Assembly: GCA_965219345.1 (NCBI GenBank) | Contig: OZ244732.1 | Span: forward strand, 480,001 to 544,000 | DNA length: 64,000 nucleotides | Reading direction: 5' to 3' | Source: Nitrosopumilus sp. | GTDB lineage: Archaea > Thermoproteota > Nitrososphaeria > Nitrososphaerales > Nitrosopumilaceae | In this document: in pieces, positions 1,472-7,371 of the stretch | Numbering within the stretch: the stretch's first letter is position 1 | Layout of the letters: every line of letters begins with the position of its first letter | The notes under the pieces: model-generated | The model's database searches: none | The model's input: only the letters and a program-made list of their open reading frames with translations | Told to the model about the DNA's origin: nothing | Translations under genes and position numbers: made by a program

Positions 1472-3658
1472 ATGAGTCAAAATGCTCTTTCCCTCAAAGT
1501 ACTTGAAGCATACACAAGAGATGTTGGAAGAGGAGTGGCAAGAATTGATTATGATTCCATGGATACACTAAATGCCTCTACTGGAGATGTTATAGAGATT
1601 AAAGGAAAGAGAAGAACAGTTGCAAAATGTCTTCCATTATATCCATCCGATGAAGGAAAAGGAATTATCAGAATTGATGGACTCGGTAGAAATAATTCAG
1701 GAATTGCTATTGGAGATACAATTTCTGTAAGAAAGATAAAGGCAGTAGCTGCAGAAAAAATAGTGGTTGCACCATTAGAAGCAATTCCTCCAATTGATGA
1801 AAGATATCTTGCAGATGCCTTAGAAAGTGTTCCTTTGATTAAAGGAGATAATGTAATGGTTCCATATTTTGGTGGACGTTTAACTTTTCAAGTTATAGGA
1901 GTAACGCCAGCAGCTGATGCAGTTTTAGTTATTCAAAAAACTGTTTTTCACATTGCAGAAAAAGGGGAGACATTACGTGGAGTTCCACAAGTCACATATG
2001 AAGACATTGGAGGTTTAACAGATGAGATAAAAAAAGTTAGAGAAATGATTGAACTTCCATTAAGACACCCAGAAATTTTTGAAAAGTTAGGAATTGAAGC
2101 ACCAAAAGGCGTCTTATTGTATGGTCCACCCGGAACAGGTAAAACATTACTTGCAAAAGCAGTAGCAAATGAAAGTAATGCACACTTCATCAGTATTTCA
2201 GGTCCTGAAATTATGAGTAAGTTTTATGGAGAAAGTGAAGCAAGGCTAAGAGAAATTTTCAAAGAAGCAAGAGAAAAATCTCCATCAATAATTTTTGTTG
2301 ATGAAATTGACTCCATTGCACCAAAAAGGGAAGAAGTTACAGGCGAAGTTGAAAGAAGAGTTGTTTCTCAAATGCTATCATTAATGGACGGATTAGAGGC
2401 AAGAGGTAAAGTCATTGTCATTTCTGCAACAAATAGACCAAATGCAATTGATCCTGCACTTAGAAGACCAGGTAGATTTGATAGAGAAATCGAGATTAAA
2501 GTTCCAGACAAAAAAGGAAGAAAGGACATACTTTCGATTCACAGTAGAAATATGCCATTAACAGATGACGTCAATATAGAGAAACTTGCAGGAGTAAGCC
2601 ACGGATATGTTGGTGCAGATTTGGAATATCTTTGTAAAGAAGCTGCAATGAAATGTTTGAGAAGGTTGCTACCTATTCTTAATTTAGAAGAAGAAAAACT
2701 CCCTCCAGAGACATTGGATAAACTAGTTGTAAATCAGGAGGATTTTTCAAAAGCATTGGTTGAAGTAATTCCATCTGGAATGAGAGAAGTTTTCATTGAA
2801 AATCCAGATATCAAATGGGATCAAGTCGGAGGTTTAGATGAAGTCAAACGAGAGTTACAAGAAGCTGTTGAATGGCCAATGAAGTATCCGGGCCTTTATG
2901 ATAAACTAGGACACAAAATGCCAAGAGGCATCTTACTTCACGGTCCAAGTGGTACAGGTAAAACATTACTTGCAAAAGCAGTTGCTACAGAAAGTGAAGC
3001 AAACTTTGTTTCAGTAAGAGGTCCTGAACTTCTATCAAAATGGGTTGGTGAGTCTGAAAGAGGCATAAGGGAAATTTTCAAACGAGCACGTCAATCTGCT
3101 CCATGTGTTATATTCTTTGATGAGATTGACTCCATTGCACCAATCCGAGGAGCAGGAGGAGAAACTGCAGTAAGTGAAAGAGTTGTTAGTCAATTACTTA
3201 CAGAACTAGATGGAATGGAAAATATGCATGGTGTTGTAGTTTTGGCCGCAACAAACAGGGCAGATATGATCGATCCTGCATTGTTAAGGCCAGGAAGATT
3301 TGATAAGATTATCCAGATTCCACTTCCAGACAAAGAAAGCAGAAAGAGTATCTTGAAAATTACTACTGAAGAAATACCAACAATTACTGAAAAAGATAAT
3401 CTCGGAAGCGTTGATTTTGATAAACTTGCTGAACTAACTGATGGACTTAGTGGCGCAGACGTAGCAGCTATTGCAAATACTGCAGTTTCTTTAGTTATTC
3501 ATGAATTCTTAGACAAGCATCCAGATGTCAAAGATGTTGAGAAGCAGAGCATAGATGCCAAAGTAACTATGGAACACTTTGAAAGATCAGTAAAGAAAGT
3601 CAGGGAACAAAAAGAACTAAAGTTAGGCGAAAAACTAGTAGCTTCCTATTACAGGTAG
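1472..3658 (+). CDS. cdc48: CDC48/VAT family AAA+ ATPase
   Basis: N-domain [11 protein letters not shown]; two AAA modules with [20 protein letters not shown] Walker B and [11 protein letters not shown]. Confidence 0.97.
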
Positions 3659-3830
3659 TTTTAATAAAATACTAGGTTTTTAGTGCCTAATATAGCATAG
3701 TCCAAAATCCCATATGGAAATAGATGTAGAAGATGACATGACTGGTATTATTAATTGCATTAATACCACATAACTTCACAGACGTTATACGAAATCTTTT
3801 CTATATCCTGTGATGTATTGTTACTATTGG

Positions 3831-3954
3831 GCCTGAGAGTCGAAGGGTTACTGCCATGTACAAGGGCGTTTGACAGACTGACTCAAAGCGAGCGGAAAAC
3901 AAAATACCACACACAGATGATGATGGTGAATGGGAGCATTCCGCTTTATCAGGC
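3831..3954 (+). ncRNA. Putative IS110 bridge (guide) RNA
   Basis: Hand-folded stems GCCTGA/TCAGGC, GAGTC/GACTC, GCC/GGC, AGCGGAA/TTCCGCT and ACCA/TGGT give two stem-loops with large internal loops; loop sequences match the IS flanks and right end. Confidence 0.7.
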
Positions 3955-3969
3955 AATTTGATCAGAAAG

Positions 3970-3976
3970 GAGGTGA
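3970..3976 (+). promoter_or_regulatory. Shine-Dalgarno sequence of the IS110 transposase
   Basis: GAGGTGA (within AAAGGAGGTGA) just upstream of ATG 3981. Confidence 0.7.
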
Positions 3977-3980
3977 TAAC

Positions 3981-5048
3981 ATGATCAGCATAGGAATTGA
4001 CGTTCATAAGAAAAACTGCGTTGCAACAATAAAAAAAGATACTAGAAAAAAGCTAGAACAGTCAAGCTTTGAGAACATCACACATGGAATGATGGGTTTT
4101 ATCAAACACATCAAAAAGACATATGGTAAAGACATACAGGCTGCGTGTGAATCAACTGCCAACTATTGGATTAGACTGCATGACACATTAGAGGATAACG
4201 GCATTGACACCGTTCTTGCACACCCTGCAAAGACCAAATAATAGCACAGGCAAAACTCAAAAACGACAAGCTTGATTCAGACGTATTGGCGGACCTGCTA
4301 AGATCGGACATGATGGTGTATGAGTCATTTGTGCCAGAAAAATACTACCGGGATCTGCGGTCTGGCAAGAACAAGACTGAATCGTGTACAAAGTGTCTCA
4401 AAACACAAAAACATGATTTATGCAATACTTGCAAAATACGATTACACCCAACCGACAATAAAGACCTTCTCACAGAAAGGAACGGATGGCTGCATGAAAT
4501 CAATCTGACCGAAGTTGACAGGATGGCAATGGATGCATATCTTGAAAATATCAATATGAATCAAAAACAGACTGGCACATTTGAGACAAAAATTGCTACA
4601 ATTAGCAACGAGGATGAAAGAACAAGGTTAGTCATGACAATCCCTGGAATAAGCTGTGTCACGGCACTGACAATAATCTCAGAGATAGTTGACATTAACG
4701 GATTTGCAACAGCAGAGAAACTCGTCTCATGCGGGACTTGCACCATCGCACAGGGACTGGGAAAACACAAAAAGGAGGCGGAATAACAAAACGGGGTTCT
4801 GCATGGTTGCGCAATGCAATGGTAGAGGCTGCAAATACTACGATACGATTTGATCCAAGGATGGAATCATTTTACTTGAGAATTGCAAAAAGGAGAGGAA
4901 AACAAAAGGCAAGGATAGTAGCTGCTGCAAGGCAGATGCCTGAGATAATTGGTACATGCTAACAAACATGGAAGAATACCGCACACAGAATCATGAGCTG
5001 ACGCAAAGAAAGTACAAGAAGATGCAAGACAAATCAGAGATGTCCTGA
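3981..5048 (+). pseudogene. IS110-family DEDD transposase/recombinase, multiply frameshifted
   Basis: GIDVHK, CEST and KNDKLD (RuvC-like DEDD); TIPGI..TALTIISEI, AGLAP and ITKRGSAWLRNAMVEAA; pieces lie in different frames (shifts near 4238, 4360, 4480, 4730-4770, 4950). Confidence 0.92.
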
Positions 5049-5133
5049 TTCAGCAAAGCACACTGAGAATGGCCCGCAGTAGGATAAGAGACGATTTCGT
5101 ATGGGAGAACCCTTGACCGATATGATTATTTAT

Positions 5134-5145
5134 CCCCCCCCCCCC
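5134..5145 (+). repeat. Poly-C homopolymer (C12) between a TATA-like box and the likely start codon
   Basis: TTATTTAT (5126-5133) directly followed by 12 C; GTG at 5158. Confidence 0.85.
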
Positions 5146-5157
5146 GTATATCCTTTA

Positions 5158-7371
5158 GTGACATTAAAAGAGAGAGACGGCATTGCAGTAATCCTAATGA
5201 TTGCAGCGATAACAGCAATGACTGCAAGCAGCGTGACAGACAATGAATCAAACAAGGCAGCATACTATACATTTGCCGATACAACTGGCAGCAGAGACGA
5301 CATTCCTGCTCCTCCGTCCTTTGACGGCTCCTTCTCATTAAGTTCCCAAACCGAATTCCCGCAAGGCCTGGCCTTCTCTGGTAACGGAATGAAGATGTTT
5401 ATTGTAGACGATGAAAGCGATGACATAAACGGATACGCATTATCCACCGCCTTTGACGTATCGACTGCCGATTTCTTTGGAAACAGTGTAGTAAAGTTTC
5501 AGGACAAAAGCCCAACCGACGTGGCCTTCTCTGACGACGGAATGAAGATGTTTGTCTTAGGTGATAACGGCAATGCCGTATACCAGTACGCGCTATTCTC
5601 CAGCTTTGGCCTTGCACCTTTCAAAGAGTTTGTTGACTCCTTCTCAGTAGGTTCACAAGACACATCCCCGCAAGGCCTGGCCTTCTCTGGTAACGGAATG
5701 AAGATGTTTGTTGTCGGCACCCAAAATAATGCCGTATACCAGTACACATTAGCCACCGCCTTTGACGTATCGAATGTCACCGACGTATCGGATGTCTCCT
5801 ATGACATCGCCTTCTCAGTAAATTCACAAGACGGAAACCCGCAAGGCGTGGCCTTCTCTGACGACGGAATGAAGATGTTTATCGTAGGTGATGACAGCGA
5901 TGCCGTATACCAGTACACATTATCCACCGCCTTTGACGTATCGACTGCCGCCTACGATAACAAGTCATTTTCAGTGGCATCACAAGACACATCCCCGCAA
6001 GGCCTGGCCTTCTCTGGTAACGGAATGAAGATGTTTGTTGTCGGCACCCAGAATGATGCCGTATACCAGTACGCGCTATCAGAGTCATTTACGTTATCCC
6101 CACCGCCAGGATCAGATGCGTCTGGCCAGTCAGAAGATGCTATGGTGAATGTTCTTCCAACACTGAGATACGATGTCGGGTATGGTACGATTGCCCGTGA
6201 ACTGTCCCTAGTAACAGAGGATCGTGTTCATCCCACATATCATAATGCCATCAACCTTAGACAACCCGGCAGTGACAATCCCTGGATTGCCGTGTTTCCC
6301 GATCCCCTGACTACCGCAGAGGGCGGCAGTCTTGTGGCATCCGGAGATCCCATATTACCATACGACTATCATGATCTTGGCAATCAGGTACCTGCCATAA
6401 CCTGTGCTACGGATGACTTTGGCCACGACCCCACAATGCTTGCCGAATTTGACTACATCCCCAGTGCCACATATACGGGCACCGACACGTTTGACATTGT
6501 CATAAAAGAGTTCACCTATGCCGGTAATGCCGGGAATGCGACCTGTGTTGCTACCGGGGCAACCGAGACCATACCCGTAGAGATTACGGTAGGTGAAAAA
6601 CCAGCTGTAACGCTTAGGGATGACTTTACAAAGTTCTCCAACAGTTCCGGCGTAGTCGTGCTTGAGCGTATTGCAGACCTGACTGGTTTGCAACCTGCCG
6701 GTGATGGCTTCTTCGACTTCCAGGTTCCATTTCCCTCCTTTGATCCCCCTGTAAGTAATGCAATAGTTGGATTTGACCTTCCTGAGACGACAGATGACGG
6801 ATCAGCCATAACCTTCGACGAGGATACTGGAGACCATATCATCAGAGGCGTGTTTAGTGATGACTTCTTTTCATACGATACGACTGTCAGTCTGCCTTAC
6901 GGTACCGTTGTTGCAAACGGCACTATCGTAGAGTCCCTAAACGAGATTGCATCAAAAACAATTGACGTCACGCTGGATTCCTCCAACGCTGAGACTCCCA
7001 CATGCTCAGCTAGGGTATCCGGTGATCTGGACTTTGGCATTCTGGCATATGGCGATACTTCGGATGCAAAGCCACTTGCAATTAGTAATACTGGCACTGC
7101 CTATGTTGATGTGGAAGTATCTGCAACTGGCTGGCTGGACAGTGATGATATCACAATCATGGGTGTGGGGCAGACAAGGTACTCTGGTAGTCCAAACGAT
7201 GCATACGCGGATAGAACCCCAGTGTCTGAAACTGACGCTACTTTTGTAAGTAATTTGGAACCTAGCTATGGTACTTCCCAATATCTGCAGATTCAAATTG
7301 GTGACATCAGCCCGAACTTTACAGGCCAGCTGACGCAGACCATAACTACGACTGCAACCTGCAATAGCTAG
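5158..7371 (+). CDS. Secreted/surface protein with five beta-propeller-like repeats and a probable C-terminal Ig-like domain
   Basis: ORF track 5101..7371, but ATG 5101 lies in the IS end; GTG 5158 gives signal-like MTLKERDGIAVILMIAAITAMTA; repeats PQGLAFSGNGMKMF/VAFSDDGMKMF..VYQY.L.TAFDVST; acidic, Thr-rich. Confidence 0.8.
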   Translation: MTLKERDGIAVILMIAAITAMTASSVTDNESNKAAYYTFADTTGSRDDIPAPPSFDGSFSLSSQTEFPQGLAFSGNGMKMFIVDDESDDINGYALSTAFDVSTADFFGNSVVKFQDKSPTDVAFSDDGMKMFVLGDNGNAVYQYALFSSFGLAPFKEFVDSFSVGSQDTSPQGLAFSGNGMKMFVVGTQNNAVYQYTLATAFDVSNVTDVSDVSYDIAFSVNSQDGNPQGVAFSDDGMKMFIVGDDSDAVYQYTLSTAFDVSTAAYDNKSFSVASQDTSPQGLAFSGNGMKMFVVGTQNDAVYQYALSESFTLSPPPGSDASGQSEDAMVNVLPTLRYDVGYGTIARELSLVTEDRVHPTYHNAINLRQPGSDNPWIAVFPDPLTTAEGGSLVASGDPILPYDYHDLGNQVPAITCATDDFGHDPTMLAEFDYIPSATYTGTDTFDIVIKEFTYAGNAGNATCVATGATETIPVEITVGEKPAVTLRDDFTKFSNSSGVVVLERIADLTGLQPAGDGFFDFQVPFPSFDPPVSNAIVGFDLPETTDDGSAITFDEDTGDHIIRGVFSDDFFSYDTTVSLPYGTVVANGTIVESLNEIASKTIDVTLDSSNAETPTCSARVSGDLDFGILAYGDTSDAKPLAISNTGTAYVDVEVSATGWLDSDDITIMGVGQTRYSGSPNDAYADRTPVSETDATFVSNLEPSYGTSQYLQIQIGDISPNFTGQLTQTITTTATCNS
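5359..6075 (+). repeat. Intragenic near-identical repeats, alternating A-B-A-B-A
   Basis: CCGCAAGGCCTGGCCTTCTCTGGTAACGGAATGAAGATGTTT at ~5359, ~5668, ~5995; GTGGCCTTCTCTGACGACGGAATGAAGATGTTT at ~5521, ~5848. Confidence 0.9.

Follow-up and report, generated by a model that had tools for sequence, protein, structure and literature searches.

Described guide RNAs and the archaeal locus

The closest described relatives of the system reported here are the bridge and seek RNAs of IS110-family insertion sequences, both of which have been in print since 2024 (PMC11208160, PMC11187229). The bridge RNA was described for IS621, a member of the IS110 group (Durrant et al. 2024, PMC11208160; structures 8wt6-8wt9). 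As the text of that report gives it, the left target guide of IS621 reads the left flank, the 5' loop strands pair with the bottom strand and the 3' loop strands pair with the top strand. A handshake rule was also formulated for IS621, by which, once exchange has occurred, the donor is paired with the dinucleotide that follows the 3' target guide (PMC13626964). The seekRNAs were described for the IS1111-type elements ISEc11, ISKpn4, ISPa11 and IS4321/IS5075, in which the top-strand complement comes first and the RNA lies downstream of the transposase (Siddiquee et al. 2024, PMC11187229). The text of the same report notes that in rare cases, such as ISMtsp17, the non-coding region is placed differently, and it presents ISHvo10 and ISAcp5 as diverged elements in which each side has a long non-coding region. 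A subterminal inverted repeat of 7-17 bp is a hallmark used for the IS1111 group (PMC11208160). Additionally, 662 archaeal IS110 recombinases are already in print (bioRxiv 10.1101/2024.06.21.599552), and a 2026 preprint modelled 86 bridge-RNA clusters from bacterial and archaeal intergenic DNA.

We analyzed a 64,000-nt stretch of DNA (G000:C1:480001-544000, referred to as the window), in which positions 3782-5107 form an IS110-family insertion sequence of 1326 bp on the + strand, the strand of all window features given below. A preliminary description of this DNA had proposed an archaeal IS110 element with a bridge RNA. This proposal was borne out by homologous copies in related archaea, in which both the stems of the RNA and the loops with their cognate DNA were found to covary, the loops across approximately 25 copies. 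The element is very probably an inactive member of the IS110 family (DEDD), the left end of which encodes a two-loop bridge or seek RNA reading both target and donor.

We compared the element with IS621 and found the overall organization to be similar. In particular, both have a DEDD plus Tnp recombinase and an RNA in the left end, upstream of the recombinase (3828-3962 compared with a recombinase start at 3981 in the window), in which the target loop precedes the donor loop. All four guides approach a 2-nt CT core from the distal side, the 3' target guide is followed by a handshake dinucleotide, and insertion is precise, with no duplication beyond the core. Several differences were also present. 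As read from two E. coli copies, IS621 has a CT core at both ends in the recombinase sense; in loop 1, the 5' strand ATCGGGCCT resembles the left flank followed by CT and the 3' strand complements CT followed by the right flank, and in loop 2, the 5' strand has the sequence of the right end. A further IS621 hit, H43, was not a simple empty site and was rejected. In contrast to IS621, the archaeal core reads AG in the recombinase sense. The 5' loop strands of IS621 have the same sequence as its left flank and its right end, whereas those of the archaeal RNA are complementary to the right flank and to the left end. The archaeal element has a subterminal repeat of 10 bp and IS621 one of 2-3 bp, a putative internal TATA-like box contrasts with the circle-junction sigma-70 promoter of IS621, and the recombinases are only distantly related (an intact homolog matches the IS621 structure 8wt6 with an E-value of 2e-13). 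The AG core relative to the recombinase gene and the guide order, which is the reverse of that in IS621, agree with the earlier suggestion that the guides read the bottom strand.

With the IS1111-type elements, the locus shares a top-strand complement located 5' of a bottom-strand match and a subterminal repeat (ATACGAAATC/GATTTCGTAT) within the 7-17 bp range, whereas the archaeal RNA lies upstream of the recombinase gene and the seekRNA downstream. The element thus mixes IS110-group and IS1111-group features, because an upstream RNA is combined with a reversed guide order and a 10-bp subterminal repeat. The left and right non-coding ends are 199 nt and 107 nt long in the archaeal element, compared with approximately 75 nt and 280 nt for IS4321 in R751, where flank and element are not cleanly separable because both copies sit in the same kind of target. 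The archaeal recombinase did not group with that of IS4321 in a tree of 33 rows. Like IS4321/IS5075 in bacteria, the archaeal family targets the tip of another transposon's inverted repeat, which suggests that tip targeting is a recurrent strategy.

Since the reversed order is already published for IS1111-type seekRNAs (PMC11187229), we regard the arrangement as a variant layout and not as a new principle. Our literature search, which covered neither figures nor supplements, returned no description of a Nitrosopumilus-type bridge RNA or of an upstream RNA with IS1111-type order. The layout or the family may already be contained in Supplementary Table 5 or Extended Data Fig. 10c of Durrant et al., in Supplementary Fig. 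2 of Siddiquee et al. or among the 86 models of the 2026 preprint. Judged from sequence comparison, the element genuinely belongs to a known system, in a variant layout and in an inactive state; the mechanism is not new, and the window copy is a relic. With this comparative evidence, the range of RNA-guided bridge recombination comes to include a family of archaea related to Nitrosopumilus. The comparison also provides a covariance model that can be used further and a set of orthologs that appear intact and recently active, with guides reprogrammed by nature (for example, the multi-copy elements in the genomes G014, G061 and G065). The layout bears on the movement of RNA genes between element ends in evolution and on the handshake rule when the cargo is inverted.

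Element boundaries, RNA structure and guide matches

A search of the genome with window 3700-5200 as the query gave 18 matches. Two of these were further full copies, C2 (G000:C1:1485227-1486579, minus strand) and C3 (G000:C1:70885-72244, minus strand), with 98% and 97% identity to the window element, respectively, and the right-end remnants comprised a 5'-truncated copy, C4 (92456-93089), and two short fragments. All copies in this genome have the common ends ACGTTAT...TATGGGAG; the start and end of the window copy were identical to those of the two full copies, and its end was also identical to those of the three right-end fragments. The flanks on the left and right are TTCACAG and AACCCTT for the window copy, GTTGACAG and AACCCGA for C2, and GTTGACAG and AACCAAC for C3, and the right flanks of the three fragments are AACCCAA, AACCTGT and AACCTAT. 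AG was present at both junctions in all three full copies and once in the empty sites, demonstrating a 2-nt core. In the window, one AG (3780-3781) forms the last two bases of the left target half ATAACTTCACAG (3770..3781), and the second AG (5106-5107) forms the terminal bases of the element. The right target half, AACCCTT, follows at 5108..5114. The left and right subterminal inverted repeats, ATACGAAATC (3787..3796) and GATTTCGTAT (5093..5102), pair without mismatch over 10 bp; in relatives, this repeat spans 6-10 bp.

An element-free paralogous locus (C1:1582555-1582679) reads ...ATAACTTCACATAACCCTTGATCG. Its unoccupied site is TTCACATAACCCTT, and the empty site reconstructed for the window copy is TTCACAGAACCCTT. 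Additionally, uninterrupted TTGACAGAACC occurred four times elsewhere in the genome, where 0.76 occurrences were expected, and uninterrupted TTCACAGAACC occurred six times. The common copy ends, the flanks and the empty sites therefore define the element as 3782-5107. The strings listed in the preliminary description were all present, including TTCACAG (3775-3781) and ACGTTAT (3782-3788) at the left junction, and its boundaries, its empty site and its 2-nt core agreed with these copies and sites. The comparison with relatives lacking the element that it had suggested succeeded in part: the paralogous and repeat-family empty sites were in agreement, and they were used because no orthologous empty allele was obtained when the left flank was searched in 20 same-genus genomes. 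The only portion of the left flank conserved in those genomes was window 3300-3671, which is part of a CDC48 coding region, and the nearest genome (89% identity) had a different gene downstream of it. A degenerate empty-site pattern gave no further match within the window. A contig joint from 3746 to 5135 in sequencing run X1 most likely derives from the paralogous locus, and the contigs of runs X1, X2, X5 and X6 were short and carried variants resembling the sister copies; neither was used as evidence.

The RNA gene occupies 3828..3962 (135 nt) and was matched by the covariance model R1 with 114.3 bits (E 5e-27). Its outer stem, GCCTGA (3831-3836)/TCAGGC (3949-3954), encloses a target loop closed by helices at 3837-3842/3879-3884 and 3852-3856/3864-3868, and a donor loop closed by helices at 3892-3896/3940-3944 and 3905-3909/3924-3928. 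The minimum-free-energy fold of 3782-3985 contained the features noticed earlier, namely the outer stem and two hairpins, each with a large internal loop. To compare relatives, 22 loci were fetched, with ends defined by comparison of copies within each genome, and the 230 nt upstream of their recombinases shared one common architecture. R1 was built from 13 of the 19 rows of a first MAFFT alignment, A1; five rows from G065 and G145 and that from G173 were dropped because A1 misplaced the long hairpin insert of the G065/G145 type, and cmsearch with R1 recovered every dropped row. RNAalifold, run on 13 diverse sequences, predicted four of the five helices, namely both closing helices of each loop, with compensatory changes in 9 of 20 predicted pairs; the outer stem was added by hand before R1 was built.

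The R1 search gave 31 matches in 51 sources, including types outside the building set, and 89.3% of the cells in the resulting alignment were paired. In this alignment, which was fitted to R1, 19 of 29 pairs changed on both sides, a number reached by none of 500 shuffles (10.9 +/- 1.7) and compared with 2-9 when partners were slid, so the proposed covariance-model check came out in favor of the structure. Three G-U pairs were conserved (in 27, 24 and 20 sequences), and as these would become A-C mismatches on the opposite strand, the sense strand is the RNA strand. In a 151-genome sample of the phylum, R1 matched four genomes, the present one and 3 of 19 others of the same family, and none of 131 genomes from other families. 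R1 also found no match in the ISHvo10 locus, the Rhizobium locus or approximately 20 more distant archaeal IS110 loci. A T/A-rich box, TTTTCTATAT (3797..3806), lies approximately 22-31 nt upstream of the R1 start, and nearly all of the 46-nt leaders examined contained such a box (TTATAA, TTATAG, TTTTCTATAT and similar) at this distance. The box would suit an archaeal TATA element, and we infer an internal promoter from it.

The target loop carries a 5' guide, AAGGGTTAC (3843..3851), in which AAGGGTT (3843-3849) is the reverse complement of the right flank (5108-5114), and a 3' guide, TTTGACAGAC (3869..3878), which corresponds to the left flank, the AG core and the first two bases of the element (a handshake-like AC). 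Within the 3' guide, TTGACAG (3870-3876) matches the window flank TTCACAG at 6/7 positions and the GTTGACAG flanks of C2 and C3 at 7/7. In most copies examined, the element starts 46 nt upstream of the R1 start (43-49 nt in a few), and since this leader spacing is nearly constant, the left junction was defined independently of loop 1. The left-end call from the subterminal repeat failed for L034, L066, L067 and L043, for which the 46-nt spacing rule was used instead, and L071, with an uncertain left end, was counted as a miss. Across 29 distinct pairs of copy and flank, the 3' guide matched the six bases before the core of its own left flank at a mean of 4.34/6, compared with 1.85/6 in mismatched pairings. 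At least five of the six positions matched in 18/29 own flanks and in 10/794 mismatched pairings, which is the loop-flank covariation that had been proposed as a check. L035 and L064 scored 3/6.

The 5' guide was compared with the reverse complement of AG plus the right flank in a register of +/-1. The longest run was at least 5 for 11/19 own flanks and 5/330 mismatched pairings, and with G-U pairs allowed, own-flank runs of at least 7 were found in 10/19. In most relatives the 5' guide ends in CT, and the core is thus covered; in the subfamily of the window copy it ends in AC. The two bases after the core in the 3' guide were the first two bases of the element in 12/17 copies and the first two of the right flank in 2/17.

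Guides also differed between copies within single genomes. The G083 copies had the guides TTCTTGAG and TTTACCAG and the left flanks TTCCTGAG and CTTACCAG, each guide matching its own flank, and the G065 copies had at least four different guides, several of which matched their own flanks. Natural retargeting is thus apparent within these genomes from the paired sequences. The flanks of copy L059 (G014) fit the guide of a sibling subtype of the same genome (L104/L105), ATAGACAGA, at 9/9 positions. L059 itself has the left end of the sibling subtype and the RNA of the other subtype; recombination or mobilisation in trans probably accounts for this copy. L007 (G000:C1:1762481-1762589) is a relic left end with 80% identity to the window element; its left flank, TTTGACAG, is a window-type target, and its own 3' guide reads CCTTGTAG, a misfit that could reflect mobilisation in trans or later drift. 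At locus L032 (G061), a partial left end with a target loop (1309-1402) lies directly upstream of a full copy (1404-1533), which begins right after the guide-coding DNA of the resident copy (GACCGGCAG). This arrangement would fit self-targeting of the guide gene followed by recombination between nested copies.

The donor loop carries a 5' guide, AAACAAAA (3897..3904), a weak complement of left-end bases 2-7, and a 3' guide, AATGGGAGCAT (3929..3939), in which ATGGGAG (3930-3936) is the right end plus core (5101-5107). The 3' guide AATGGGAG corresponded to the right end plus core in every copy with the right end located. In L043, the variant right end ATGGAAG was paired with the matching guide GATGGAAG. 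The 5' guide matched left-end bases 2-7 of its own copy at a mean of 4.53/6 (n=17), compared with 3.03/6 in mismatched pairings. Within G065, the left end ATGCT occurred with the guide ATAGCA and the left end ATGCC with the guide ATGGCA.

Weighing the explanations and a proposed mechanism

Several observations count against a two-loop guide RNA in the window element. The fold energy of the region is ordinary (z = -0.57; 59 of 200 shuffles fold as well), and the alignment behind the pair counts favors the structure to which it was fitted. The loop-1 3' guide matched only 2/6 flank positions in L059, L069, L046 and L071 and 1/6 in L007, and the right flank of L059 gave a run of only 3 with its own 5' guide. 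In the window copy, the 5' target guide, ending in AC, leaves the core uncovered, and the donor 5' guide matches at 4/6 positions only, a weakness that the preliminary description had already pointed out. Finally, the recombinase gene is damaged in all three full copies of this genome, and for this reason the system is probably not active there.

The energy value also bears on the view that the left end belongs to the transposase mRNA as an ordinary 5' leader or regulatory structure, in which case the matches would have arisen by chance or as a by-product of site-specific recognition by a protein. Each match in the window is just 7 nt long, and no Rfam family matched the region at E-values up to 10 except three chance hits to small nucleolar and long non-coding RNAs; over the whole window, the gathering score was attained by three tRNAs only. 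When the 135-nt region was simulated 20000 times with a first-order Markov model, both exact 7-mers arose seven times and all three matches twice, a joint chance of approximately 1e-4. Since guides and flanks also change together in many independent copies, and the matches are kept in internal loops closed by covarying helices, we consider such a leader very improbable. Transcription of a functional RNA from the opposite strand seems even more remote. The bottom strand does show an IS621-like CT core, but the conserved G-U pairs would be lost there, the donor loop would come first with guides running from the core outwards, unlike in IS621, and the T/A-rich box lies upstream in the sense direction in nearly all copies examined.

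A closer competitor accepts the RNA and lets only loop 1 act as a guide, as in a seekRNA, with the recombinase recognising the ends mainly through the 10-bp subterminal repeats and loop 2 serving as a protein-binding scaffold. The length of this repeat speaks for such a division of labor, as does the 4/6 match of the donor 5' guide with the left end in the subfamily of the window copy (the window copy, C2, L030 and L046), and for ISEc11 a short seekRNA with target matches only is described as sufficient (PMC11187229). Moreover, the loop-2 3' guide AATGGGAG shows no covariation signal because guide and right end are almost invariant. However, across the family the donor 5' guide does covary with the left end, with at least 5/6 positions matching in 9/17 own pairings compared with 18/250 mismatched controls. 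The paired changes within a genome (ATAGCA with ATGCT, ATGGCA with ATGCC) and the variant right end of L043, which goes with its own guide, point in the same direction. We therefore consider a purely scaffolding loop 2 unlikely, and it remains the more plausible of the three alternatives.

In the two-loop reading, which we prefer, the RNA would be transcribed from the internal TATA-like box, bind the recombinase and fold into an outer stem around two internal loops. Loop 1 would read the target DNA, and loop 2 would read the donor, that is, the joined ends of the excised circle. The loop-1 3' strand would pair with the bottom strand because it has the same sequence as the left flank, the AG core and the first two bases of the element, and the 5' strand would complement the right flank on the top strand. 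In loop 2, the 3' strand would represent the right end plus core, and the 5' strand would complement the left end. When the DNA is turned over to a CT core, strand exchange would take place in the IS621 geometry, including the post-exchange handshake dinucleotide, and the long donor arm would lie on the RNA-gene side. Compared with IS621, the RNA and recombinase genes are therefore inverted relative to the recombination site.

Recombinase, targeted transposons and neighboring sequences

The recombinase gene (PF01548 and PF02371; 3981..5000) is a pseudogene that occupies three frames relative to an intact homolog and contains an in-frame stop at 4239-4241. Together with the three reading frames, this stop demonstrates the decay of the gene, as had been noted for the transposase of the window copy. 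PF01548 and PF02371 both scored above their cut-offs, in pieces in the window copy and in one 358-codon frame in C2, and the NCBIfam model NF033542 (IS110 family RNA-guided transposase) gave 191.7 and 223.6 bits at a cut-off of 140 bits. When the intact homolog from G014 was aligned with IS621, the residues that we take to be catalytic in IS621 lined up, namely those at the IGID, CES/EAT and D..D positions and the SG-motif serine. The serine region is out of frame in the window copy, and the C3 recombinase is split like that of the window copy. After YYRDLR, approximately 40 codons of C2 are unlike the homologs and another frame resembles them (LARTRLNRVQSVSKHKNMIYAILAKYDY compared with LVRTRSGCKRDGARHRNKIHAILARYDY), which indicates two compensating frameshifts. 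No clearly intact copy was found in the genome. Nearly all members examined have a conserved candidate for a strong Shine-Dalgarno-like site, GGAGGTGA or a near variant, 5-20 nt ahead of the recombinase start (window 3966-3977).

The host is archaeal, since its 16S gene scored higher with the archaeal model (1455 bits) than with the bacterial model (1091 bits). Matches to the C2 protein (E <= 1e-10) were found in 39 of 201 same-family genomes, including the present one, and in 11 of 27 genera, and several of these same-family genomes contained multi-copy, open-frame elements with 38-57% identity. A search of contig collections gave just two loci, and the only named records found with a related recombinase were two Nitrosopumilus metagenome-assembled genomes. 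The best match in the plasmid collection was a Rhizobium IS110-family gene (35.3% identity), and the named relatives there included ISHvo10 (31.4%) and an Acidiphilium IS110-family element (29.8%), both among the better-scoring named recombinases. In the 33-row tree, the recombinases with the RNA formed a single clade (support 92/99), grouped with ISHvo10, ISSso6/ISEc45 and other archaeal clades in a branching order that was not settled, and apart from IS4321 plus ISPsy16 and from IS621. With few references, and with the IS621 and Acidiphilium rows on long branches, this tree does not decide between the IS110 and IS1111 groups for the family.

The flank motif ...ATAAC(T/G)T(C/T/G)ACAGAACC occurred at 61 places in the genome within 3 mismatches of a 16-mer, often as inverted pairs that face outwards at a distance of 0.1-4.5 kb. 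Direct duplications of 8 bp followed the motifs in at least two of these pairs (1007879/1010705 and 1847202/1851756). Four motif-bounded units (loci L091-L094; G000:C1 1007879-1010720, 1033406-1036785, 1847202-1851771 and 745195-749172) each contained a DDE_Tnp_IS240 transposase, a domain with 19 matches in the genome, and a DNA methylase or MmeI-type enzyme. The motif thus bounds an IS6-like transposon family as inverted repeats of approximately 30 bp. The IS110-family element is inserted 4 bp inside the outer tip of such a repeat; ATAACTTCACAG corresponds to the inner part of the tip, and AACC (5108-5111) is its outermost 4 bp. From these positions, the natural target is evidently a site 4 bp inside the terminal-inverted-repeat tip of IS6-like transposons. 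A derivative of approximately 650 bp resembling a miniature inverted-repeat transposable element was present at 905045/905665, and a shorter repeat pair, approximately 120 bp apart, at 1169890/1169994. C3 (G000:C1:70885) and C4 (93089) face outwards approximately 22 kb apart, and their right flanks continue as AACAATTG and CAATTGTT, which are mutual reverse complements over 8 bases beyond the repeat tip. This pattern suggests that both tips of one repeat-bounded unit of approximately 22 kb were hit; no IS240-type gene was found inside that unit.

It is conceivable, although we would hold this view only tentatively, that the family represents a third layout of IS110-family elements, with the RNA upstream as in IS621, with site polarity, guide order and subterminal repeats as in the IS1111 type, and with the RNA made from an internal archaeal TATA-type promoter and not from a circle-junction promoter. 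If so, RNA-gene position and site polarity would evolve separately, and RNA made from integrated copies would allow sibling or defective copies to be mobilised in trans; the two misfit copies, L059 and L007, lie in sites matching another copy's guide. In ecological terms, the family would then be a repeat-tip hunter, splitting IS6-like transposons with methylase and MmeI-type cargo at their ends, and such hunting would amount to RNA-guided conflict between mobile elements in archaea.

Immediately upstream of the element region lies a gene for a CDC48-type double AAA ATPase (window 1472-3658). Its 3' part (3300-3671) was found with 69-89% identity in 18 of 20 same-genus genomes and as a short fragment in a 19th, and the spacer between this gene and the element, which holds the target, was not conserved in them. 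Downstream, the listed ATG (5101-5103) of a 756-codon open reading frame (5101-7371) is contributed by the element's right end. Twelve consecutive C (window 5134-5145) stand just after the probable start of this frame. The frame belongs to a paralogous family, and its 5' region recurs at eight other places in the genome, one paralog having 11 C; the C run may be a slippage or phase-variation tract.

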